Source of the DNA: a virus
Taxonomy: Duplodnaviria; Heunggongvirae; Uroviricota; Caudoviricetes
Strand: one strand, 5' to 3'
Length of the DNA stretch: 8,050 bases
Virus record (IMG/VR): IMGVR_UViG_2778261269_000007
Location: 1-8,050 of that record
How positions within the stretch are numbered: position 1 is the stretch's first letter; each line of letters starts with the position of its first letter. The translations under genes were made by a program, and so were the position numbers. This document shows, one piece after another, positions 1 to 8,050 of the stretch. The notes below the pieces were generated by a model. That model was not told the origin of the DNA and did no database searches. It was given only the letters and a program-made list of their open reading frames with translations.

Positions 1-201
1 TTACCCATTGGCGCGGCTTAAGAGTTTATTTTTGAACTCACAATGGTCACGATATAACCATCTTGCTCGCCCGTGGATAACTTTGGCTTTAGGCAGGTCT
101 CCGGACTTAATCCGGTCATAGATGAAGGTTTTACCGAAGCCAGTATCGGCCATGATGAATTTCAAATCAACCAGTGAATCAGGTTGTAGTTCGTGTTGCA
201 T
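1..201 (-). CDS. Putative excisionase / AlpA-family DNA-binding protein (66 aa)
   Basis: Complete minus-strand ORF (ATG 199-201, stop TAA 1-3) with GGAGA 8 nt upstream. The motif DTGFGKTFIYDRIKSGDLP...RWLYRDHCEFKNKL fits the AlpA/Xis winged-helix pattern. It sits at the distal end of the leftward early operon, where xis lies in lambdoid phages. It is not lambda Xis by sequence. Confidence 0.6.
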   Translation of the reverse strand: MQHELQPDSLVDLKFIMADTGFGKTFIYDRIKSGDLPKAKVIHGRARWLYRDHCEFKNKLLSRANG

Positions 202-240
202 GAGTGCTATCTCCGAATAGGGAATCGAACCTGCAAATCA

Positions 241-267
241 GGCAATAAAAAACCGCCATCAGGCGGC
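241..267 (-). terminator. Rho-independent terminator-like hairpin (minus strand)
   Basis: The minus strand reads GCCGCC-TGAT-GGCGG followed by TTTTTTATT. Stem arms lie at 253-257 and 262-266, with the U-tract encoded by the A-run at 244-251. Confidence 0.5.
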
Positions 268-426
268 TTGGTGTTCTTTCAGTTCTTCAATTCGAATATT
301 GGTTATGTCTGCATGTGCTATCTGCGCCCATATCATCCAGTGGTCATAGCAGTCGTTGATGTTCTCCGCTTCGATAACTCTGTTGAATGGTTCTCCATTC
401 CATTCACCTGTGACTCGGAAGTGCAT
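259..426 (-). CDS. Small hypothetical phage protein (55 aa, MHFRVTGEWNGEPFNRVIEAENINDCYDHWMIWAQIAHADITNIRIEELKEHQAA)
   Basis: Hand-translated minus-strand ORF below the ORF-track size cut-off. ATG at 424-426 is preceded by GGAGA; the stop TGA (259-261) lies in the loop of the terminator hairpin. It fills the gap between the Ea8.5-like gene and the excisionase gene. Confidence 0.4.
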   Translation of the reverse strand: MHFRVTGEWNGEPFNRVIEAENINDCYDHWMIWAQIAHADITNIRIEELKEHQAA

Positions 427-439
427 TTATCATCTCCAT

Positions 440-464
440 AAAACAAAACTCGCCGTAGCGAGTT
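440..464 (-). terminator. Rho-independent terminator-like hairpin (minus strand)
   Basis: The minus strand reads AACTCGC-TACG-GCGAGTT followed by TTTGTTTT. Arms lie at 447-453 and 458-464, directly downstream of the 515..796 gene. Confidence 0.45.
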
Positions 465-514
465 CAGATAAAAGAAATCCCCGCGAGTGCGAGGATAGTT
501 ACTTGTTCATATTA

Positions 515-796
515 TTAATCGTCAATGTATTTTGAGCATTGTGGGCAATCATCAATCCCACAATACGATTCATATGCATCCTTTATTGCGTCGCGGGCTT
601 CAGTAAGAGTATTGAATAAGTTGCAGCTATTATCTTTTTGATATAGGTAAGTTCCTAATTTATAAGCAGAAGAAGCATCATTTCCGCTGTCTAAAATTAC
701 ATCGTTATGGATTCTGCACCTTGCAAGAACTCCTGATCCCATAAGGGTCTGCATAGCCCATTGCTCTTGATCTTCACACAAATCATGAATGCTCAT
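515..796 (-). CDS. Ea8.5-like small protein with C-terminal CxxC (93 aa from the internal ATG)
   Basis: Minus-strand ORF 515..814 in the track. The ATG at 794-796 has a GAGAGGTG Shine-Dalgarno 5-7 nt upstream, so the start is probably MSIHDLCEDQEQWA. C-terminal ...YCGIDDCPQCSKYIDD, the length, and the position between the ea22-like gene and xis resemble the lambdoid Ea8.5 family; the family assignment is from memory. Confidence 0.5.
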   Translation of the reverse strand: MSIHDLCEDQEQWAMQTLMGSGVLARCRIHNDVILDSGNDASSAYKLGTYLYQKDNSCNLFNTLTEARDAIKDAYESYCGIDDCPQCSKYIDD

Positions 797-910
797 TTCA
801 ACACCTCTCTTCACGTTTCACACACGTTAAGATTAACAGTGTTTTTACATGTTTTGGAAGATTTATTTTATAAAAACTCTTTTAATACAAATAGATATAA
901 TAGTTCACTA

Positions 911-1384
911 TTATAGCTCCTTTAATCGAGGCGGTTCAGGTAGAGGCATCCAGTGGGTTACCTCTTTGAGATACAGGTCTTCGCCATCACCGTCATCCCA
1001 AGTGGGATTGCCATCATTAAACCAGTCGCCATATACGCCGACCTGAGTGTTGGGGATGTTTGGTGGGTAGTTGTTTTTAAAGTCAGCTGCTAACACATAG
1101 CATTGTCGCTCTCCCATTTCTGGCATTCGCTCACTACAGCTTATCCAACCATCCGGAGTTACCGGAGAGTTGCCCGACAGCTCGTTCAACTTGTAAGTCT
1201 GGCTTACAGGCTCGACTTCCAGTGATGCCAGCGCAATTCGTGCCAGTTCTAGTTCTCGTGCAACCATCTCAATAACAACTTTGCAGTCCGCACCTTCTTT
1301 GCTAACACGTCCTTTCAAGTCTTCCAGATAACTAACGCTTTCGCGTGCATGGGAGATTAACTGTTCTTTGGTAAATGTTGTCAT
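911..1384 (-). CDS. Phage protein with C-terminal DUF551-like domain (157 aa)
   Basis: Minus-strand ORF with GAGG upstream of ATG 1382-1384. The C-terminal GWISCSERMPE...VTHWMPLPEPP matches the characteristic DUF551 signature common in E. coli prophage accessory regions. Confidence 0.55.
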   Translation of the reverse strand: MTTFTKEQLISHARESVSYLEDLKGRVSKEGADCKVVIEMVARELELARIALASLEVEPVSQTYKLNELSGNSPVTPDGWISCSERMPEMGERQCYVLAADFKNNYPPNIPNTQVGVYGDWFNDGNPTWDDGDGEDLYLKEVTHWMPLPEPPRLKEL

Positions 1385-1578
1385 TGATAGCCTCTACTTA
1401 TATTTTGGGGTTCGATCACACATAAGGAATCCAGTCACGTATGAGTAAGCACAATCCCACTTATCCCCCTTGCTGATAGCAACTCCTTCACTTAATCCAC
1501 GGTTATAGCCAGCACTCTCACCGACTCAAATGCCGCCAAAACCAAAAACAAATGCGATAACAATGGTGTAAAGTTGTC

Positions 1579-2202
1579 TCATGCCTTCTCCTGCTGGCTA
1601 ATAACTTCGTGTTCTCTACTGCTTTCCAACACTGATACAGCCTGGAAAGCCTCTTTAAGCACCCAGTCAACAGCGTCTTTCCATGCTCCTGTTTCGACTG
1701 GCGGATTTTCACGCTTAACCTGTTCATAGAAGCTCACTGCTTTAACCAGTCCTTCCGGCACTACTGGCGATGGCTGTTTAGCTTCTAAATCAGCAATTCT
1801 GTCAACAACGGCATCAACGGCATCAGAAAAGCCGAACCAGTTACTCCACTCCGGCCTATCCCCGGTTGCTGCAAAGTACATATCAGCTAAAGCAGACTCA
1901 GCATGGTCACGCTCATTAATGAGTTGCTCTTCGCTTTTCTCCAGCTCTGCAATGCGTTTGCTTTGAGCTTCCAGTTCATCAAGAAGCGCAAGCACGGTAG
2001 CCGGATTAGCCTTGGCAACAAAATCCCGGACTGGCTTACAATCAATCTCCGCAATGGGTTGATACAATGTGTAGCCATGCTGTCTTGTATAACTACCGTG
2101 ACGAATAACGAAAAAATCACCATTTATTTTTTTAGCCTGCCACTTATCTTCACCTGCTTTCTCTGCCGCCTCACGCAGTACCTGATAGTCAATCTTGCTC
2201 AC
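1579..2202 (-). CDS. Ead/Ea22-like family protein (207 aa)
   Basis: Minus-strand ORF starting at GTG 2200-2202 with GGAGG 6 nt upstream. The N-terminus [17 protein letters not shown] is the typical start of ead/Ea22-like prophage proteins, followed by coiled-coil-like LEAQSKRIAELEKSEEQL. Confidence 0.6.
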   Translation of the reverse strand: MSKIDYQVLREAAEKAGEDKWQAKKINGDFFVIRHGSYTRQHGYTLYQPIAEIDCKPVRDFVAKANPATVLALLDELEAQSKRIAELEKSEEQLINERDHAESALADMYFAATGDRPEWSNWFGFSDAVDAVVDRIADLEAKQPSPVVPEGLVKAVSFYEQVKRENPPVETGAWKDAVDWVLKEAFQAVSVLESSREHEVISQQEKA

Positions 2203-2455
2203 TGGTTGCCTCCGTTTCCCACGTTTTCAGACTTTCACCACAGAACGGGCAAAATAAAACCCGAATCGGCGATTTAGAAAACTCGCCTGACCGAAGCATG
2301 ATCAGATCTTGTGAATGAATTAATTCATGGTTATAGATTTTGTATTTCAGCAGACCTTTTCGCGTCGTGTATTCAGCGTCATGCTCCAAGGATTGCGTCA
2401 ACGCCGAGCACGGTTCTATCTTATTGCCATTAATTTGGCATTTTGACTCACTCAC
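2189..2455 (-). CDS. Hypothetical Cys-containing small protein (88 aa; Cys at 6, 16, 69, 72 including CPFC)
   Basis: Minus-strand ORF with GTG start at 2453-2455 and AAGGAGG 6 nt upstream. Its 3' end overlaps the ea22-like start. Four cysteines suggest a possible metal-binding ribbon. No recognisable family. Confidence 0.45.
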
Positions 2456-2619
2456 TGGTTGCCTCCTTTACGCCACATCGCATTCAGATATTTGTTTTGA
2501 TTTACTGATGGAAAAGAATTTCTCTTAAGTAATTCCTCTCTCGATGGCATTGGCTTTACGCGTTGGCGAATAATCATTTCTGCCAGAAGAATGCCGGGAT
2601 TGTATGCAAGTCCTCTCAT
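2452..2619 (-). CDS. Small hypothetical protein (55 aa, [55 protein letters not shown])
   Basis: Hand-translated minus-strand ORF below the track cut-off. ATG at 2617-2619; stop TGA at 2452-2454 overlaps the GTG start of the downstream gene in a GTGA arrangement typical of translational coupling. The Shine-Dalgarno is weak. Confidence 0.3.
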
Positions 2620-2635
2620 GGTAAATTCCACTTTG

Positions 2636-2956
2636 TTAATTTATTCGTATTCCTGTTCTCTCTTCATCGAGTTTTTTTAGCTTGTATCGCATAGCCCTTA
2701 CTGAATAAATTGAGCGGCAGGTTGCAATTGCTATTTCTTCTGCGGAGAACTTACCGAAAAGTGATACTTCGGCTCTTGTCCATCGTCTTCCACGAAGTCG
2801 GCTAACAATGTCAGCGCCAATCCTTGTTGCTTTCGCCATAACTGCTTTTTCAGTCCTTTCCAGTTTTTCAGCGATAACTTCAACTGGCATTGTCGCCGCT
2901 ACTTCGCGCAAGAAATCGACTTCCCATTTCTCCCATGGAGTCTTTTTCATAGGCAA
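2636..2956 (-). CDS. Hypothetical protein with two tandem helix-turn-helix-like (Myb/SANT-like) repeats (106 aa)
   Basis: Minus-strand ORF. Internal repeat [12 protein letters not shown]...[19 protein letters not shown] and [36 protein letters not shown] indicates a duplicated small DNA-binding-like module. Domain assignment is by pattern only. Confidence 0.45.
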
Positions 2957-2961
2957 TACCG

Positions 2962-3444
2962 TTATTTGATAAGAAGTGAAGGTTTCCCAACTTTGAGTTG
3001 AGCGCCGGGGATATTTATTCCTGCTTTTAGTTGGTGTTTGATTGCCAGTTTGTCGGCTTTAATTGTCGTTTCAAACTCAACGTATTCAGGAGGAAGGGCG
3101 CTTGAGTCGATTATTTCTACAATTTCTGACGGTTTGCGGATTGTTACCTGGTGAATACCTGCTCGAATATTTTTCTTGCCAACCATTTCAAGCGATGACG
3201 CTATATATGATTTGATGCTGTCAATCTTATTTTGAATTACTGCGGCTCGCTCATTCAGTGACTTTGCCTCTTCCTTGAGGCGTTCGGCATAACCAGATTC
3301 ATTTTTAATGACGGAAAGAAGTTGTTCTATTTTATCGGTAAATTCTCCTTCCATGCCTTCTATTGTGTCAGCAATCATCTCTGGTTCTAAATCTGAATCC
3401 ATCAATTTTGCGTATTCATTGGCAATTTCATACAGTTTGCTCAC
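2962..3444 (-). CDS. Phage protein, coiled-coil rich, possibly Gp157-family, encoded immediately downstream of recT (about 160 aa)
   Basis: Track ORF 2962..3450. GGAGG lies at 3451-3455, immediately adjacent to the TTG, so the start is more likely GTG 3442-3444. It overlaps the recT 3' end by 17 nt. The N-terminal half is charged and helical (EYAKLMDSDLEPEMIADTIEGMEGEFTDKIEQLL...RLKEEAKSLNERAAVIQNKIDSIK). The family name is a low-confidence recollection. Confidence 0.5.
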   Translation of the reverse strand: MSKLYEIANEYAKLMDSDLEPEMIADTIEGMEGEFTDKIEQLLSVIKNESGYAERLKEEAKSLNERAAVIQNKIDSIKSYIASSLEMVGKKNIRAGIHQVTIRKPSEIVEIIDSSALPPEYVEFETTIKADKLAIKHQLKAGINIPGAQLKVGKPSLLIK

Positions 3445-4330
3445 TGGCAACCTCCAGTTTAGCTTTGCATTCTGCGTAAATGGCTTGTACGTTCTGCTGC
3501 AATTTCATTCCAGATGTCAGGCGATATGCTTCTGCAAAATATCGCTTCAAATCATCCATGTTTTCTGCCTGAGCCATTTCATCACAAAGAAGTTGTGCTT
3601 TATCCATTATTTCCTTCTGGCGTTTCCGTTCATCTTCGCGTATATCTTCCTCTGATTTGTGCGGCATAACTGGTTCCTGATGCATACCTTCATCCTCGTT
3701 AAGCAGGTGAATGGCATTATCCAGTCGCTGGGCTTTAGGCCAGTATTTGCTGGCGCGTTTAACTATTGTTTTACGCGCCATCTCTTCCCAGAATGTCTTC
3801 CACGGTCCATTCTTTGCCTTGCTCGTTGCTTCCACAGCTTTAATTTCTGCCAGACTCATTTCTTCAGTCAGGTAGTCACCATCTGCTGTTTTAACCGTGC
3901 AATAACCACCAACAATAGAGCCTCGCTCACCAAATGCGTTGTATTTGTGGGTTGGTGCTGAATCAAGGCCGTTTGATTCATAGGTGTCGTTTGAGTACAC
4001 CAGTTTGCATTGCCCCCACTTAATTGAGCCTGTCGATTGCGCAAGATGAAGTAATCCCATATAGCTGATATCAAGGCAAACCATGCCGTCGCGCGGAACC
4101 AGATAAGCCAGTTTGCTGGCCGGGTTTAAGGTGATGCCGATCGCCGCAACATTGATGATGGCGTTCTGTGCGCTGGTTGGATTTGCCAGTGCCGTTTTAG
4201 CAAGGTAATCGTTTTTCTGGAAATACTGAATTGCAAACTGGCTTTCCTTAGCCCATGTAACCGTCTGTTCAGTCAATGCTCCGCAGAATAACTGCTCCTG
4301 CTGTTTAACGAATTCAACGATATTGCTCAT
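3428..4330 (-). CDS. recT: RecT-family single-strand annealing recombinase (300 aa)
   Basis: Minus-strand ORF. The C-terminal region NGPWKTFWEEMARKTIVKRASKYWP parallels the E. coli RecT segment NNGPWVTHWEEMAKKTAIRRLFKYLP, and the overall architecture is RecT/Red-beta like. It occupies the position of bet in the lambda PL operon. Confidence 0.8.
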   Translation of the reverse strand: MSNIVEFVKQQEQLFCGALTEQTVTWAKESQFAIQYFQKNDYLAKTALANPTSAQNAIINVAAIGITLNPASKLAYLVPRDGMVCLDISYMGLLHLAQSTGSIKWGQCKLVYSNDTYESNGLDSAPTHKYNAFGERGSIVGGYCTVKTADGDYLTEEMSLAEIKAVEATSKAKNGPWKTFWEEMARKTIVKRASKYWPKAQRLDNAIHLLNEDEGMHQEPVMPHKSEEDIREDERKRQKEIMDKAQLLCDEMAQAENMDDLKRYFAEAYRLTSGMKLQQNVQAIYAECKAKLEVASEQTV

Positions 4331-4638
4331 GCAGCTTCTCCAAAAATGTGTCTGCGTTTGAATATTGCGAAGGCATATTCAGCCTTAACTCTTTCGGTTA
4401 TTGCATCCCAGAACCATTCAGCGGCTTTTTCCTGATAGTTACAGTCATCATCTTCCAGCCAGTCGATAGCGTCCTTAGTGTGTTCATCTGGTTTATATGA
4501 GCGAAGCATTTCGCTTATTGGGTCGCAACGTTTGCAGAGGCGATCAACTTCACTGTTGATTCGCTCGTAATCTTCATCAGTAAAACTTGCGATTATTTGC
4601 GATATTTCACGCTTATCATTCAGAGTCAGAATCATCAT
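4327..4638 (-). CDS. Hypothetical acidic protein translationally coupled to recT (103 aa); candidate host-nuclease modulator
   Basis: Minus-strand ORF whose stop overlaps the recT ATG (ATGA at 4327-4330). It occupies the gam/abc position immediately upstream of the recombinase. No family recognised from sequence. Confidence 0.55.
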   Translation of the reverse strand: MMILTLNDKREISQIIASFTDEDYERINSEVDRLCKRCDPISEMLRSYKPDEHTKDAIDWLEDDDCNYQEKAAEWFWDAITERVKAEYAFAIFKRRHIFGEAA

Positions 4639-4723
4639 CTTTCTCCTGTTCTTTGTGCTGATTGAGCATTTTGTTCATCTGACGAATGAATTCTTCGTCT
4701 GACCAGTTATCTGTAAAACTCAT
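4616..4723 (-). CDS. Small acidic hypothetical protein (35 aa, MSFTDNWSDEEFIRQMNKMLNQHKEQEKDDDSDSE) in the kil position
   Basis: Hand-translated ORF. ATG 4721-4723 overlaps the stop of the cIII-like gene (ATGA), and the 3' end overlaps the start of the 103-aa gene. Positionally equivalent to lambda kil but with no sequence resemblance that I can confirm. Confidence 0.3.
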   Translation of the reverse strand: MSFTDNWSDEEFIRQMNKMLNQHKEQEKDDDSDSE

Positions 4724-4890
4724 GGGCGGCCTTGTTGTTTCAAAATATCCCAAAGCTTTTCGAGCAAACTTTTCATTCTTGGTTGTTTAAAGTCTGCTCC
4801 GGTTAAAATATTTTTTCGTGAATGCTGTACCGATAAAATCGGGTTGAAAGGGCGAACCGATGCCGCCCCTGCAATAGCGAACTGTTGCAT
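4720..4890 (-). CDS. cIII: cIII-like protein (56 aa from the internal ATG)
   Basis: The track ORF 4720..4995 has an internal ATG at 4888-4890 with AAGGAG 7 nt upstream. From there the product MQQFAIAG...SLLEKLWDILKQQGRP resembles lambda CIII (MQYAIAG...LLERI...LIDILNQPG). The upstream part of the track ORF spans a terminator hairpin and is unlikely to be coding. Confidence 0.45.
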   Translation of the reverse strand: MQQFAIAGAASVRPFNPILSVQHSRKNILTGADFKQPRMKSLLEKLWDILKQQGRP

Positions 4891-4956
4891 AGGATGCTCC
4901 TTCTGTTTGATTGCATAACGAAAACGCCTCGAGTGAAGCGTTATTGGTATGCATAT

Positions 4957-4980
4957 AAAAAGGCCCTCACACTGGAGGGC
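4957..4980 (-). terminator. Rho-independent terminator-like hairpin between ral and the cIII-like gene (tL2-like position)
   Basis: The minus strand reads GCCCTC-CAGTGT-GAGGGC followed by CTTTTT. Arms at 4963-4968 and 4975-4980; the U-tract is encoded by the A-run at 4957-4961. Confidence 0.45.
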
Positions 4981-5116
4981 AAAGAAGATTTCCAATAATC
5001 AGAACAAGTCGGCTCCTGTTTGGTTACGAGCGACATTGCTCCGTGTATTCACTCGTTGGAATGAATACACAGTGCAGTGTTTATTCTGTTGTTTATGCCA
5101 AAAATAAAGGCCACTA

Positions 5117-5317
5117 TCAGGCAGCTTTGTTGTTCTGTTTACCAAGTTCTCTGGCAATCATTGCCGTCGTTCGTATTGCCCATTTATCGACATATTTCCC
5201 ATCTTCCATTACAGGAAACATTTCTTCAGGCTTAACCATGCATTCCGATTGCAGCTTGCATCCATTGCATCGCTTGAATTGTCCACACCATTGATTTTTA
5301 TCAATAGTCGTAGTCAT
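5117..5317 (-). CDS. ral: Ral, restriction alleviation protein (66 aa)
   Basis: The minus-strand ORF MTTTIDKNQWCGQFKRCNGCKLQSECMVKPEE... matches my recollection of lambda Ral in length and sequence, and it lies downstream of N as in lambda. Confidence 0.7.
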   Translation of the reverse strand: MTTTIDKNQWCGQFKRCNGCKLQSECMVKPEEMFPVMEDGKYVDKWAIRTTAMIARELGKQNNKAA

Positions 5318-5387
5318 ACGGATAGTCCTGGTATTGTTCCATCACATCCTGAGGATGCTCTTCGAACTCTTCAAATTCTTCTTCCAT
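5301..5387 (-). CDS. Small acidic ORF (28 aa, MEEEFEEFEEHPQDVMEQYQDYPYDYDY), lambda orf28-like
   Basis: Hand-translated ORF. ATG 5385-5387 is preceded by GAGGTGA; the stop at 5301-5303 overlaps the ral start by 17 nt. Length and position between N and ral match the lambda orf28 annotation as I recall it. Confidence 0.4.
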   Translation of the reverse strand: MEEEFEEFEEHPQDVMEQYQDYPYDYDY

Positions 5388-5395
5388 ATATCACC

Positions 5396-5722
5396 TCAAA
5401 TAAGTGGTTTGCTGCCTAATTTCATTTTCTGGCGACCAACACAAGTCACACCCATTTCACTGCATGGCTTGCTGTACCATGTGCGCTGATTCTTGCGTTC
5501 AATACGTTGCAGGTTGCTTTCAATCTGTTCGTGGTATTCAGCCAGCACCGTAAGGTCTATCGGATTAAGTGCGCTGTCTACTCGTGATTTCGGTTTGCGA
5601 TTCAGCGAGAGAATAGGGCGGTTAACTGGTTTTGCGCTTACCCCAACCAACAGGGGATTTGCTGCTTTCCATTGAGCCTGTTTCTCTGCGCGACGTTCGC
5701 GGCGGCGTGTTTGTGCATCCAT
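5396..5722 (-). CDS. N: Antitermination protein N (108 aa)
   Basis: The minus-strand ORF MDAQTRRRERRAEKQAQWKAANPLLVGVSAKPVNRPILSLNRKPKSR... is near-identical to lambda N as recalled, including the arginine-rich boxB-binding motif at the N-terminus. AGGAG lies upstream of the ATG. Confidence 0.9.
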   Translation of the reverse strand: MDAQTRRRERRAEKQAQWKAANPLLVGVSAKPVNRPILSLNRKPKSRVDSALNPIDLTVLAEYHEQIESNLQRIERKNQRTWYSKPCSEMGVTCVGRQKMKLGSKPLI

Positions 5723-5920
5723 CTGGATTCTCCTGTCAGTTAGCTTTGGTGATTGGATGGCCGGCGCTGAACCCCGGCTTACTGGTTAGAGCGCCCGCAC
5801 TACCAGTGACGCTGTCTTGAGGCGCAGATTGGTTACTGCTTGCCATGAGCGCTGTTTATACATTGGTCGAGCATCAGCCTGCTCATTCATCCAATCCCAA
5901 AGCCTTCTGCTTTGAATGCT

Positions 5921-5951
5921 GCCCTTCTTCAGGGCTTAATTTTTAAGAGCC
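5921..5951 (-). promoter_or_regulatory. nutL site (boxA variant plus boxB hairpin)
   Basis: The minus strand reads GGCTCTTAAAAATTAAGCCCTGAAGAAGGGC. boxB GCCCTGAAGAAGGGC (plus 5921-5935) is identical to lambda nutL boxB. boxA is GGCTCTTA (plus 5944-5951), against CGCTCTTA in lambda. Confidence 0.8.
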
Positions 5952-5983
5952 TCACCTTCATGGTGGTTAGTACGTCCTGCTGA

Positions 5984-6019
5984 TGGCTAAATAGTACGAT
6001 TTGTACTTTATTGAGTCAA
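5984..6019 (-). promoter_or_regulatory. PL early leftward promoter
   Basis: The minus strand reads TTGACT (-35, plus 6014-6019), a 17-nt spacer, TACTAT (-10, plus 5991-5996), then the start at the A of ATCAGCAGGACG (about 5984), which is the lambda PL transcript start sequence. Confidence 0.7.
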
Positions 6020-6032
6020 TACAAAATGTTCT
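5993..6032. promoter_or_regulatory. Putative OL operators (palindromic repressor sites overlapping PL)
   Basis: A perfect palindrome AGTAC-N5-GTACT at 5993-6007 overlaps the -10. A related site AATAC-N5-GTTCT at 6018-6032 overlaps the -35. The pattern differs from lambda OL (TATCACCGC...), consistent with a different immunity. Confidence 0.45.
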
Positions 6033-6083
6033 AAATATAATTAGTTTTTTATAACGCTTTGTATTTAATGGGTTTATATTTTG

Positions 6084-6114
6084 GAAAAAGAAAACCCGAC
6101 GCTAAGGTCGGGTT
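6084..6114 (-). terminator. Rho-independent terminator downstream of cI
   Basis: The minus strand reads AACCCGAC-CTTAGC-GTCGGGTT followed by TTCTTTTT. Arms at 6093-6100 and 6107-6114, about 30 nt after the cI stop. Confidence 0.5.
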
Positions 6115-6144
6115 ATTGTTGTGTGTTTTAGAGTTGTGAGGCTG

Positions 6145-6798
6145 TTAACTAAATGTCTCTTCAGGCCACTGGCTGGCGATAACTTTCCCTACTACGGAAC
6201 AGCTATCATTGCATGGAATCATTGGATATTGCGGGTTTAGTGGCTGTAGGAACACCTGACCGCTATCCCTGATCAGTTTCTTGAAGGTAAACTCGTCACC
6301 ACCAAGTCTGGCTATGCAGAAATCACCTGGCTCAACAGCCTGCTCAGGGTCAACGAGAATTAACATCCCGTCAGGAAAGCTTGGCTTGGATCCTGTTGGA
6401 GCGGTCATGGAATTACCTTCAACTTCAAGCCAGAACGCACAATCACTGGCTTTTTTGGTTGTGCTTACCCATCTCTCCGCATCACCTTTGGTAAAGGTTC
6501 TAAGCTCAGGCGAGAACATCCCGGCCTGAACATGAGAAAAAACAGGGTACTCATATTGTTTTTTAACGGGGGCAGATGAGTATTCGCCAACAGGTGAAAA
6601 TGTACCGTCGTGGTTGAATGAGACGTTATCAATACCAAGGTATTTAAACACCACACCAATCTCGTCAAGAGATGGATGACGAGATCCGCGCAACCAGTGA
6701 CCAATTCCACCCTGCGTCATACCAAGCTCTTCAGCTAACTTCTCTTGAGTTATGCCGAGCTCTTTCATTCTGGATCTAGCCAGTTCATACCATTTCAT
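6145..6798 (-). CDS. cI: CI-type prophage repressor (HTH N-terminal domain plus S24 LexA-like C-terminal domain)
   Basis: The C-terminal 130 or so residues ([29 protein letters not shown]...[28 protein letters not shown]...[28 protein letters not shown]...) are near-identical to lambda cI as recalled, including the GNSM serine and the catalytic lysine region. The N-terminal HTH ([23 protein letters not shown]) is unlike lambda. The track ORF extends to a TTG at 6846, but an operator-like palindrome at 6814-6828 and an AAGGG Shine-Dalgarno favour ATG 6796-6798 (or 6802-6804). Confidence 0.85.
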
Positions 6799-6813
6799 TT
6801 TCATACCCTTATT

Positions 6814-6896
6814 ATTACGCTCTGTACTAAAACCATCCATGCACAAGATGTATTTTTTGTTTGCATTCTAAAAGTACATATCGTATTATTGTTTCA
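6814..6896. promoter_or_regulatory. OR operator region with PR (plus strand) and the presumed PRM (minus strand)
   Basis: PR: TTGCAT (6861-6866), 17-nt spacer, TATTAT (6884-6889), start near 6896, followed by GGAGGG and the cro ATG. Operator-like palindromes AGTAC-N5-GTATT (6872-6886, over the PR spacer and -10) and ATTAC-N5-GTACT (6814-6828) belong to the same family as the OL sites. The PRM hexamers could not be placed with confidence. Confidence 0.55.
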
Positions 6897-6915
6897 TGGT
6901 TACTATGGAGGGCAT

Positions 6916-7131
6916 ATGAGCAACCTACGAAAATATCGAGAGTCACTGAATATCTCTCAAACAACACTTGCTAAGGCAGTTGGATGCACACAGGGAGCTA
7001 TCGGACATTGGGAATCTGGTCGTCGCTTCCCAGACCTTAAAACATGCCGTGCTCTTGTTGAGTGCCTAAACAAGTTAGGCGCAAAAGTCAGTCTTGATGA
7101 CGTGTTCCCGCCGGAACACAAAGCCGCTTAA
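6916..7131 (+). CDS. cro: Cro-like repressor (71 aa, XRE-family HTH)
   Basis: First plus-strand gene after PR, with GGAGGG 4 nt before the ATG. The HTH QTTLAKAVGCTQGAIGHWESG resembles the HTH of the adjacent cI N-terminus. Not lambda Cro by sequence. The track ORF 6745..7131 is 5'-extended through the operator region. Confidence 0.8.
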   Translation: MSNLRKYRESLNISQTTLAKAVGCTQGAIGHWESGRRFPDLKTCRALVECLNKLGAKVSLDDVFPPEHKAA

Positions 7132-7139
7132 GACATTCC

Positions 7140-7171
7140 CGCTCTTACACATCCCAGCCCTGAAAAAGGGC
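7140..7171 (+). promoter_or_regulatory. nutR site (boxA CGCTCTTA plus boxB GCCCTGAAAAAGGGC)
   Basis: The sequence CGCTCTTACACATCCCAGCCCTGAAAAAGGGC matches lambda nutR as recalled. The following segment up to the cII start also matches the lambda tR1 / cII leader. Confidence 0.8.
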
Positions 7172-7227
7172 ATCAAATTAAACCACACCTATGGTGTATG
7201 CATTTATTTGCATACATTCAATCAATT

Positions 7228-7273
7228 GTTATCTAAGGAAATACTTACATATGGTTCGTGCAAACAAACGCAA
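7228..7273 (-). promoter_or_regulatory. PRE (cII-activated repressor-establishment promoter) with TTGC-N6-TTGC cII-binding repeats
   Basis: The minus strand across the cII start reads TTGCGTTTGTTTGCACGAACCATATGTAAGTATTTCC, the lambda PRE arrangement as recalled. The direct repeats TTGC...TTGC lie at plus 7260-7273. Confidence 0.6.
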
Positions 7274-7544
7274 CGAGGCTCTACGAATCGAGAGTGCGTT
7301 GCTTAACAAAATCGCAATGCTTGGAACTGAGAAGACAGCGGAAGCTGTGGGCGTTGATAAGTCGCAGATCAGCAGGTGGAAGAGGGACTGGATTCCAAAG
7401 TTCTCAATGCTGCTTGCTGTTCTTGAATGGGGTGTCGTTGACGACGACATGGCTCGATTGGCACGACAAGTTGCTTCGATTCTCACCAATAAAAAACGCC
7501 CGGCGGCAACCGAGCGTTCTGAACAAATCCAGATGGAATTCTGA
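7251..7544 (+). CDS. cII: Transcriptional activator CII (97 aa)
   Basis: From ATG 7251 the product MVRANKRNEALRIESALLNKIAMLGTEKTAEAVGVDKSQISRWKRDW... is essentially identical to lambda CII as recalled. The track ORF 7191..7544 is 5'-extended. Confidence 0.9.
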   Translation: MVRANKRNEALRIESALLNKIAMLGTEKTAEAVGVDKSQISRWKRDWIPKFSMLLAVLEWGVVDDDMARLARQVASILTNKKRPAATERSEQIQMEF

Positions 7545-7566
7545 GGTCATTACTGGATCTATCAAC
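7490..7566 (-). ncRNA. oop: oop antisense RNA (overlaps the cII 3' end)
   Basis: The minus strand from about 7566 reads GTTGATAGATCCAGTAATGACCTCAGAA...GTTGCCGCCGGGCGTTTTTTATT, matching lambda OOP RNA with its terminator as recalled. The ends are approximate. Confidence 0.55.
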
Positions 7567-7576
7567 AGGAGTCATT

Positions 7577-8050
7577 ATGACAAATACAGCAAAAATACTC
7601 AACTTCGGCAGAGGTAACTTTGCCGGACAGGAGCGTAATGTGGCAGATCTCGATGATGGTTACGCCAGACTATCAAATATGCTGCTTGAGGCTTATTCAG
7701 GCGCAGATCTGACCAAGCGACAGTTTAAAGTGCTGCTTGCCATTCTGCGTAAAACCTATGGGTGGAATAAACCAATGGACAGAATCACCGATTCTCAACT
7801 TAGCGAGATTACAAAGTTACCTGTCAAACGGTGCAATGAAGCCAAGTTAGAACTCGTCAGAATGAATATTATCAAGCAGCAAGGCGGCATGTTTGGACCA
7901 AACAAAAACATCTCAGAATGGTGCATCCCTCAAAACGAGGGAAAACCCCCTAAAACGAGGGATAAAACATCCCTCAAATTGGGGGATTGCTATCCCTCAA
8001 AACAGGGTAAGCGTCAACGGAGCACCGTATTGACGCTTATTTATTGGTGA
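7577..8050 (+). CDS. O: Replication initiator O, N-terminal iteron-binding part; frame terminates prematurely at 157 codons
   Basis: The product MTNTAKILNFGRGNFAGQERNVADLDDGYARLSNMLLEAYSGADLTKRQFKVLLAILRKTYGW... matches lambda O through about residue 145, then diverges (lambda ...SKQGDTKDT versus here ...SKQGKRQRSTVLTLIYW stop). Full-length lambda O is about 299 aa. CAGGAG lies upstream of the ATG. Confidence 0.85.
   Translation: MTNTAKILNFGRGNFAGQERNVADLDDGYARLSNMLLEAYSGADLTKRQFKVLLAILRKTYGWNKPMDRITDSQLSEITKLPVKRCNEAKLELVRMNIIKQQGGMFGPNKNISEWCIPQNEGKPPKTRDKTSLKLGDCYPSKQGKRQRSTVLTLIYW
7926..8007 (+). repeat. ori-lambda iterons (four O-binding repeats; the fourth is truncated)
   Basis: Four direct repeats of the TCCCTCAAA(A/T)...GGGA type at about 7926-7942, 7946-7962, 7970-7986 and 7993-8007, inside the O coding sequence as in lambda. 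The right arm of the fourth repeat is replaced by unrelated sequence. Confidence 0.8.

Follow-up and report, generated by a model that had tools for sequence, protein, structure and literature searches.

Between recT and an Ead/Ea22-like gene, the window (the whole stretch that was analysed, 8,050 nucleotides, positions 1 to 8,050 of the Caudoviricetes record IMGVR_UViG_2778261269_000007) carries four minus-strand, translationally coupled genes that encode proteins of 160, 104, 55 and 88 aa. The initial annotation saw in them a possible host-takeover or anti-defence module. The question is whether these genes form one functional unit, and what their products are. We found that all four are catalogued genes of lambdoid/P22-like phages, that the locus is a common part of a prophage recombination region which had been sequenced before, rather than a new anti-defence operon, and that the genes do not form a single module but comprise the end of a recombination (Rec) module and the start of the variable 'ea' region. 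The features of the locus are the following:

1579..2202, minus strand: Ead/Ea22-like gene, start of the variable 'ea' region (Pfam Ead_Ea22, 1.4e-17)
2189..2455, minus strand: 88-aa Cys4 gene, GTG start (phrog_4030, 5.9e-42)
2198..2213, minus strand: 16-nt junction GGAGGCAACCAGTGAG, downstream copy at the boundary of the 88-aa and Ea22-like genes, exact repeat
2451..2466, minus strand: 16-nt junction GGAGGCAACCAGTGAG, upstream copy at the boundary of the DUF2737 and 88-aa genes, exact repeat
2452..2619, minus strand: DUF2737 gene, 55 aa, ATG start (PF10930, 5.4e-30; phrog_1117, 2.7e-35)
2636..2950, minus strand: abc1L, tandem-HTH gene, 104 aa, ATG start (phrog_11492, 4.7e-23; phrog_323, 8.3e-21)
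2962..3444, minus strand: gp157-like gene, 160 aa, GGAGG-N6-GTG start (Pfam PF05565, 2.4e-37; phrog_253, 5e-54)
3428..4330, minus strand: recT, RecT-family single-strand annealing protein (Pfam RecT, 2.6e-33; phrog_148, 9.3e-92)
4327..4638, minus strand: phrog_3486 gene, 103 aa, conserved proximal flank of the Rec module (phrog_3486, 3.7e-59)

The gp157-like gene starts at a GTG located 6 nt past a GGAGG and overlaps the recT stop by 17 nt; its mechanical open reading frame begins earlier, at a TTG at position 3450. The lengths of 160, 55 and 88 aa given by the initial annotation were retained, whereas its 106 aa for the tandem-HTH protein depended on an upstream TTG at 2956, and the relatives are annotated with 104 aa. 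The GTG start of the 88-aa gene lies within a GTGA overlap with the stop of the preceding DUF2737 gene, and at its 3' end it shares 14 nt with the start of the Ead/Ea22-like gene. Compared to relatives, substitutions in all four genes are biased toward the third codon position, and dN/dS is 0.08-0.23 for the 88-aa gene, 0.11-0.44 for the 55-aa gene, 0.16-0.24 for the 104-aa gene and 0.12-0.17 for the 160-aa gene. All four genes are real and subject to purifying selection (dN/dS 0.08-0.44), and the description of four tightly packed, coupled genes on one strand was confirmed. Within the four-gene stretch, no promoter-like or terminator-like sites were detected beyond shuffle expectation, and there was no Rfam match, which fits a single polycistronic early-left transcript; the Rec-module end and the first 'ea' cassette would all be read from it. 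The genes are tightly coupled, of the dispensable early-left type and adjoin the recombinase, in which respect the initial annotation was right. There is no exonuclease or SSB gene in the window, recT being the sole core recombinase gene, and an NCBIfam scan contributed nothing new besides RecT.

Over the whole block, nucleotide identity to the sequenced phages Kapi1, Gally, mEpX1 and HK140 amounts to 95-98%. The arrangement recT-gp157-abc1L(-DUF2737) is kept in almost every one of the 80 closest loci; conversely, the 88-aa gene occurs in none of these 80 gp157 loci. Therefore, the four genes are not one module. The 88-aa gene is present in P7, D6, Rac-SA53 and Cornellvirus, and in the first three it travels with Ead/Ea22-like genes. 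It is flanked in the window by the two exact copies of the 16-nt junction GGAGGCAACCAGTGAG, a Shine-Dalgarno (SD) sequence followed by a GTG start that overlaps a TGA stop, compared to 0.01 copies expected by chance. This junction also stands at the head of many alternative Ead/Ea22-like genes (in approximately 30 related loci). Absence from the closest relatives, together with the bracketing repeat, points to a swappable cassette; the 88-aa gene would thus be an independent mobile element, with a copy of a conserved gene-junction sequence on either side of its insertion. Its protein family (phrog_4030) includes P7 Upf87.4/Rac-SA53 rac21, and the label 'Cys4' is justified because C6, C16, C69 and C72 are invariant in sets of 14 and of 10 sequences, down to 32% identity. 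The protein contains an FCPFCG motif, and several models matched below threshold (DUF6980, 0.007-0.02; DUF7835; Zn_Ribbon_1, 0.038, one member). A PDB sequence search yielded no significant match (E>=0.06), and the AlphaFold2 (AF2) model is unreliable (pLDDT 47) and too poor for a structure search. The protein is probably metal-binding.

The 160-aa protein is a full-length member of the Sipho_Gp157 family (PF05565, 128.9 bits versus a cut-off of 28.6, model positions 1-162 of 162). The earlier label 'coiled-coil' holds loosely, as the N-terminal half has weak matches to coiled-coil segments; the statement that no function was recognisable was wrong for this protein (Sipho_Gp157, 2.4e-37) and for the 55-aa protein (DUF2737, 5.4e-30). 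In PHROGs, the family (phrog_253) is labelled 'Mu Gam-like end protection', and PGAP names the protein 'siphovirus Gp157 family protein'. A PDB sequence search gave no significant match, and a scan of viral contigs with the Gp157 alignment returned near-identical loci only, which provided context and no deeper profile. The genomic company of the gene is consistent: here it adjoins an SSAP gene, overlapping recT; in five Gram-positive phages whose genomes were fetched (of Listeria, Streptococcus agalactiae, Staphylococcus, S. thermophilus and Lactobacillus), it lies directly beside a Sak4/Erf recombinase or SSB gene; and in Bacillus phage 022DV001 an Erf gene is one gene away. In many phages, the recombinase next to the family is RecT, Erf or Sak4, which belong to three unrelated families. 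It has been reported that gam-like, gp157-like, DUF2483 and DUF1351 genes share the slot beside SSAP genes, 'implying analogous function' (PMC8093625). A 2025 survey classed the copy in HK140, which carries the same block at approximately 95% identity, as a 'MuGam' anti-RecBCD gene, MuGam binding DNA ends, and the HK140 Rec module as SAP type 4 with no nuclease, no SSB and MuGam (PMC12315714).

Comparisons to Mu Gam itself gave a fainter signal. The 160-aa protein had no match to Phage_Mu_Gam (PF07352) at E<=0.1, other Gp157 members likewise lacked a PF07352 match, and BLASTP of the 160-aa protein against Mu Gam showed no meaningful similarity (E 1.2). The hhalign probability was 1% with a shallow profile and 18-20% with more diverse profiles (E ~1e-3, colinear across 107-138 columns), compared to 0.4% for the reversed control. 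Since this profile test is no more than weakly positive, DNA-end protection is an inferred role. PDB entry 2P2U is the solved comparator for the Mu Gam/Ku fold; biochemical characterisation of a Gp157 protein was not found in the searched literature. None of the four proteins matched lambda Gam (PF06064) or P22 Abc2 (phrog_656) at the sequence level, and BLASTP revealed no similarity between the 160-aa protein and P22 Abc2. It should be noted that HK140 has 4 Chi sites on one strand versus approximately 0.6 expected, so that the Chi avoidance reported in phages with RecBCD inhibitors (PMC3784561) is absent from HK140. In mosaic genomes of 40 kb, Chi counts have too little power to serve as a proxy for RecBCD inhibition.

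The description of the 104-aa protein as a tandem HTH was upheld. Its AlphaFold2 model (mean pLDDT 81) contains six helices arranged in two three-helix units (8-17, 23-30 and 34-44; 59-66, 70-77 and 81-99), and a single repeat type, present in Mu gp9 and in multi-repeat proteins, is matched by each of the two halves; three-repeat paralogues exist. According to the model, the protein is built of two Myb/sigma-70-region-4-like HTH repeats. BLASTP of one half versus the other produced no alignment. Structure matches in BFVD are phage two-HTH proteins of approximately 100 aa (E down to 6e-5), and Foldseek against the PDB returned HTH matches only, all non-significant (E>=0.16), probably due to the flexible link between the two domains of the model. 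Across the 160-, 104- and 88-aa proteins, PDB searches by sequence, and further ones with two family profiles, found nothing significant. At the profile level, the protein is identified as a remote homologue of P22 Abc1 and Mu gp9: the family profile (16 sequences) aligned with Abc1 over 77 columns in hhalign (probability 95.5%, E 1.6e-8; hmmsearch, 6.3e-5) and with Mu gp9 (probability 93.9%, E 1.5e-7). Phrog_323 is matched by both the 104-aa protein and Abc1, and the intermediate P0366 is 37% identical to the former and 35% to the latter; pairwise BLASTP detected nothing against Abc1 and nothing useful against Abc2. The HTH repeat is widespread (2,539 representative proteins at E<=1e-3), and the likeness of Abc1L to Abc1 rests on such common repeats and so may be partly generic. 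Genes of this type are distal in other Rec cores, i.e., P22 Erf-Abc1-Abc2, Mu gp9-Gam, ExoVIII-like-phrog_11517-Abc1L-DUF2737 and lambda Gam-phrog_21613-YqaJ-Abc1L; Abc1L, a small protein of two HTH units, thereby recurs in the distal position next to many different Rec cores.

The 55-aa protein scores 103.5 bits against PF10930 (cut-off 25) and is 75% identical to P22 orf56 across 52 aa (E 2e-30), an alignment that identifies it as the orf56 equivalent. In the window, as well as in P22 and a Stx2a phage (Sak4-SSB-Abc2), DUF2737 comes after the last Rec gene, and it probably represents a conserved boundary gene at this point of several module types. Jersey-like and Kaguna-like phages, which are virulent, also have its conserved C-terminal motif, at sites distant from any Rec module.

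Four known systems resemble the locus to different extents. The Rec modules of HK140, mEpX1, Kapi1 and Gally have RecT, 'MuGam', a D5-like regulator and DUF2737 in identical order; however, in HK140 and 683R2 the HTH gene and DUF2737 are separated by an additional gene of 93 aa (phrog_154) that is missing from the window, and these two phages lack the 88-aa Cys4 gene, which the window has. In P22 (erf-abc1-abc2-orf56), a recombinase is likewise followed by small accessory genes in the matching operon position, two of which correspond to ours (Abc1 at the profile level, orf56 by close identity). P22 uses Erf in place of RecT; against RecBCD it has Abc2, a protein that binds RecC and shows no similarity to the Gp157 of the window; and Abc1 precedes the anti-RecBCD gene, whereas abc1L lies behind Gp157. 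Phage Mu has a two-HTH phrog_323 protein of approximately 100 aa, gp9 (E8), directly beside the end-protection gene, but Mu Gam belongs to PF07352 and the window protein to PF05565, a weakly supported link; the gene order is reversed, there is no RecT in Mu, and the gp9-gam adjacency is limited to close Mu relatives (49 of 80 loci of Mu-like phages). Siphoviruses of Gram-positive hosts also pair Gp157 with an SSAP (S. thermophilus Sfi21 orf157 type; Listeria LP-101, Staphylococcus SA75 and Lactobacillus Lrm1). These pairs share the Pfam family (PF05565, 26-36% identity) and the position beside an annealing protein; they differ in that Gp157 is upstream of Sak4 or Erf, with SSB alongside, and in that Abc1-like and DUF2737 genes are missing. 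We also considered whether a small HTH gene beside Gp157 is a general rule; this was rejected, since in Bacillus phage 022DV001 the adjacent HTH is of the XRE type and unrelated, and since an Abc1-like gene is missing from Gram-positive Gp157 loci.

With regard to the individual roles, Gp157 is most likely a RecT partner that binds or shields double-stranded DNA ends in the manner of Mu Gam. The shielded phage ends would escape RecBCD and stay open to RecT, the module itself lacking both a nuclease and an SSB. Alternatively, Gp157 might be another kind of recombinase accessory, such as a mediator or loader that acts with the annealing protein, in which case the label 'Mu Gam-like' over-extends a weak similarity. 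Strict adjacency to three unrelated recombinase families, the lack of a significant sequence link to PF07352, the profile-profile probability of no more than 18-20% and the unavoided Chi of HK140 speak for this. Against it, the weak alignment runs colinearly through the greater part of the two proteins and is distinctly better than the reversed control, PHROGs and the specialist survey group Gp157 with Mu Gam, and true gam-like genes hold the same SSAP-adjacent slot in other phages; we regard such another accessory role as unlikely, albeit not negligible. For the 104-aa protein, the precedent is P22 Abc1, which aids recombination according to genetics (PMC12315714), contains an HTH domain and causes cell death that depends on P4, perhaps by perturbing P4 transcription, as proposed by Silas et al. 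(bioRxiv 10.1101/2023.04.06.535777), and from which several phages gain fitness in wild E. coli (PMC12373910). By analogy, Abc1L is probably a DNA-binding accessory of recombination or host modulation. There is a comparably small chance that it is a plain transcription regulator of phage or host genes with an incidental recombination neighbourhood: phrog_323 is annotated 'transcriptional regulator, D5-like', the two HTH units resemble sigma-70 region 4 and Myb, and the proposal on P4 transcription points in the same direction; however, the protein recurs beside at least five differently composed recombination/end-protection modules, and the P22 genetics favour recombination. A regulatory function of this kind is compatible with the main explanation.

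Taken as a whole, the stretch is, with moderate confidence, the promoter-distal end of a lambdoid/P22-like prophage Rec module plus the first 'ea' cassette, with Gp157, Abc1L, DUF2737 and the Cys4 protein in the roles proposed above. Joint action of the four genes as one host-takeover or anti-defence operon, the view taken initially, is improbable. Their tight coupling, the counter-defence-like phenotypes of P22 Abc1 and the status of RecBCD as a defence hub that Gam-type proteins neutralise speak for it, and host manipulation is indeed plausible for the 160-aa protein ('MuGam' class) and for the 104-aa protein (Abc1 homology). As a property of all four genes, it conflicts with the absence of the 88-aa gene from 80 of 80 closest loci and its presence in unrelated contexts, with the extra gene that splits abc1L from DUF2737 in HK140 and 683R2, with the occurrence of DUF2737 alone in virulent phages, and with PADLOC, whose defence models matched none of the four proteins. 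Furthermore, Abc1L and DUF2737 persist where the RecT-Gp157 core has been replaced. It is conceivable, although rather doubtful, that an Abc1-like gene, often with DUF2737, forms a conserved distal flank of enterobacterial phage Rec modules with a host-directed function. Such a function would account for both effects of P22 Abc1, which helps recombination and also makes wild E. coli more sensitive to unrelated phages. The cores swapped next to such a flank would be RecT with Gp157, Erf with Abc2, an ExoVIII-like nuclease with phrog_11517, and lambda Gam with YqaJ exonuclease, and the host-directed function would be counter-defence or control of host DNA-repair genes.

The arrangement holds no surprise for a phage specialist; the practical value of the analysis is in correct annotation. 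RecT is accompanied by its probable Gp157/'MuGam-type' partner (the 'coiled-coil' protein) and by a relative of Abc1 (the 'tandem-HTH' protein), and the 55-aa protein is P22 orf56. The Abc1-like, DUF2737 and Cys4 families are widespread in enterobacterial prophages. The comparative pattern is one of Abc1-like and DUF2737 genes that stay constant around swappable recombination cores, with the Cys4 gene as a cassette between junction repeats. In an Enterobacter prophage, a gene of the phrog_3486 family likewise lies on the proximal side, ahead of a Rec core of another kind.

The four tightly packed open reading frames between recT and the Ead/Ea22-like gene are real but ordinary: the stretch takes in the accessory genes that close a recombination module of known type (RecT, Gp157 and an Abc1-like protein, then DUF2737), joined to one mobile cassette of the 'ea' region. 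Literature and databases already contain this block of sequence and its classification. In a lambdoid/P22-like (Lederbergvirus-type) prophage, the window corresponds to the immunity and early-left region; going from the cI-like repressor along the minus strand, the order is N-like, kil-like, phrog_3486, recT, the four genes, Ead/Ea22-like, DUF551 and xis. The features are located as follows:

6145-6846, cI-like repressor, the start point of the minus-strand reading
4327-4638, minus strand, phrog_3486 gene (103 aa), upstream of recT
3428-4330, minus strand, recT
3444, minus strand, GTG start of the 160-aa Gp157 gene, six bases past GGAGG; the gene overlaps the recT stop
2950, minus strand, most likely ATG start of the 104-aa HTH (Abc1-like) gene
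2619, minus strand, start of the 55-aa DUF2737 gene
2455, minus strand, GTG start of the 88-aa Cys4 gene, with a GTGA start/stop overlap and a 14-nt overlap with the Ea22-like start
2451-2466 and 2198-2213, minus strand, exact copies of the 16-nt direct repeat GGAGGCAACCAGTGAG bracketing the 88-aa gene
1579-2202, minus strand, Ead/Ea22-like gene

All four reading frames described in the initial annotation are present and coupled. In each of them third codon positions carry most of the substitutions relative to homologs, and dN/dS ranges from 0.08 to 0.44, indicating that the genes are real and under selection. Promoter-like and terminator-like sites in the stretch did not exceed shuffled expectation, and no Rfam matches were found there. 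The 1.4-kb four-gene stretch shows 95-98% identity to phages vB_EcoP_Kapi1, Gally, mEpX1, HK140 and vB_EcoP-683R2, and parts of window positions 1500-4400 (2.9 kb) are matched in 2,235 of 5,426 complete E. coli genomes, where PGAP names the products 'RecT family recombinase', 'siphovirus Gp157 family protein', 'DUF2737 family protein' and 'hypothetical protein'. The recombinase gene of the module is recT; exonuclease and SSB genes are absent across the 8-kb window, and the module must use host nucleases or ends generated in another way. In HK140 and vB_EcoP-683R2 the Abc1-like and DUF2737 genes are separated by an additional 93-aa gene (25736-26017 of the HK140 record and 4005-4286 of the 683R2 record), a phrog_154 member labelled 'replication initiation protein' and similar to Sf6 gene 24, whereas the window is without it.

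The Sipho_Gp157 domain is complete in the 160-aa protein (2.4e-37), which also falls in phrog_253, 'Mu Gam-like end protection' (5e-54). Homologues were found by tblastn in 599 phage records, the majority of them Gram-positive siphoviruses. Among fetched examples, a Sak4 or Erf recombinase gene directly adjoins the Gp157 gene in Listeria LP-101, Staphylococcus SA75, S. thermophilus ALQ13.2 and Lactobacillus Lrm1; its neighbors are two SSB-annotated genes in Streptococcus phage Javan34, Erf is one gene away in Bacillus phage 022DV001, and an exonuclease gene is its neighbor in Vibrio phage D60. A survey of Firmicutes SSAPs places gam-like, orf157-like, DUF2483 and DUF1351 genes in one slot, 'implying analogous function' (PMC8093625). 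Among the 325 lambdoid phages surveyed in a 2025 paper, HK140, whose module is the same as that of the window, is placed in SAP type 4: it lacks both nuclease and SSB and has a 'MuGam' protein against RecBCD. The paper describes MuGam as binding DNA ends (PMC12315714). In direct comparisons, the 160-aa protein had no PF07352 match and no BLASTP similarity to Mu Gam. With a shallow Gp157 profile, hhalign against Mu Gam gave 1%; when 14 diverse Gp157 sequences were compared to a profile of the Mu Gam family to which a PDB 2P2U fragment had been added, the result was a weak 18-20% (E about 1e-3), colinear over 107-138 columns, compared to 0.4% for the reversed control. Because this test of the Gam link is weak, we infer, and go no further, that Gp157 probably protects DNA ends, which is the leading reading of its function.

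Phages encoding RecBCD inhibitors are described as Chi-avoiding (PMC3784561). The whole HK140 genome contains four Chi sites (GCTGGTGG; record positions 2143, 13519, 15106 and 16201), on one strand only and all in the late region, against an expectation of about 0.6 per strand; P22 contains no Chi site. The HK140 count is at odds with Chi avoidance, in what is a low-power test, and would be surprising if the Gp157 protein blocks RecBCD fully.

The AlphaFold2 model of the 104-aa protein (pLDDT 81) is a linker-joined pair of three-helix units, and three-repeat versions exist among its relatives. An exhaustive profile search collected 2,539 representative proteins of this repeat family, many with 3-11 copies, which score in Pfam as Myb-like or sigma-70 region 4 domains. 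The Gally counterpart is annotated 'Abc1-like'. BLASTP detected no similarity between the 104-aa protein and P22 Abc1; phrog_323 is matched by both and by Mu gp9 (E8), and intermediate sequences connect all three. A 16-sequence family profile aligned with both repeats of P22 Abc1 at a probability of 95.5% (E 1.6e-8), and with Mu gp9 at 93.9%. P22 Abc1 is reported to aid recombination (PMC12315714), and it is described as an HTH-domain protein that sets off P4-dependent cell death (bioRxiv 10.1101/2023.04.06.535777); several phages are reported to be fitter in wild E. coli with it (PMC12373910).

The HTH gene recurs at the distal end of recombination modules of differing composition, as follows from its contexts in P22, Mu, an Enterobacter prophage and a Salmonella contig. 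P22 has erf, then abc1. In phage Mu (1483-2326 of the fetched record), gp9, which has two HTH units and shares its PHROG with P22 Abc1, is encoded immediately upstream of gam; this pairing holds in 49 of 80 Mu-like loci, only where Gam shares about 90% identity or more with that of Mu, and is lost in every more divergent locus. The Enterobacter hormaechei prophage has the order phrog_3486, ExoVIII-like, phrog_11517, Abc1L (51% identical to that of the window) and DUF2737. The phrog_3486 gene precedes different sets of core recombination genes, recT in the window (4327-4638) and ExoVIII-like plus phrog_11517 in this prophage (1806-2114 of its record); with Abc1-like and DUF2737 genes after both, it is the core that changes while the flanks stay the same. 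In the Salmonella contig (2082-3959), lambda Gam, phrog_21613 (167 aa) and a YqaJ exonuclease are followed by a three-repeat 152-aa Abc1-like protein. The 167-aa protein and the 189-aa phrog_11517 protein, both without annotation, fill the slot expected for an annealing protein.

The initial annotation had also suggested that the four genes would fit a host-takeover or anti-defence module. The anti-defence idea is partly right, only insofar as genes of the Gam and Abc1 types cope with RecBCD or with barriers of the host. The four genes do not make up one system, and known defence models are matched by none of their products.

The 55-aa protein matches DUF2737 (5.4e-30) and is 75% identical to P22 orf56. 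Its gene comes after the final recombination gene in the window, in P22 (where that gene is abc2) and in a Stx2a phage (Sak4-SSB-Abc2-DUF2737). In the literature text searched, DUF2737 was mentioned only in a report on Salmonella phage vB_SalP_NW15. Virulent Jersey-like and Kaguna-like phages keep the C-terminal ~30 residues in very small genes that lie between lysis and terminase genes, outside any recombination module (Salmonella phage vB_SenS-EnJE6, 2289-2444 of its record, and other Jersey/Kagunavirus records), and this suggests a short motif with a function of its own.

The 88-aa protein is a phrog_4030 member without a Pfam family. Its relatives keep the four cysteines (C-x9-C ... CPFC) invariant down to 32% identity; the structure model of the protein is unreliable, and its zinc-ribbon-like matches are sub-threshold. 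The gene is present in 0 of the 80 closest Gp157 loci. The family occurs in P1-like phages (P7 Upf87.4, SJ46, D6), Rac-SA53 (rac21), mEp460, a Stx2k phage and a virulent Cornellvirus, usually close to Ead/Ea22-like genes. The bracketing repeat, of which 0.01 would be expected by chance, consists of an SD followed by a GTG start overlapping a TGA stop, and about 30 related loci have this junction ahead of many alternative Ead/Ea22-like genes. Together these are a signature of cassette exchange where the boundary between genes is conserved, and the repeat looks like a mosaic boundary for such exchange.
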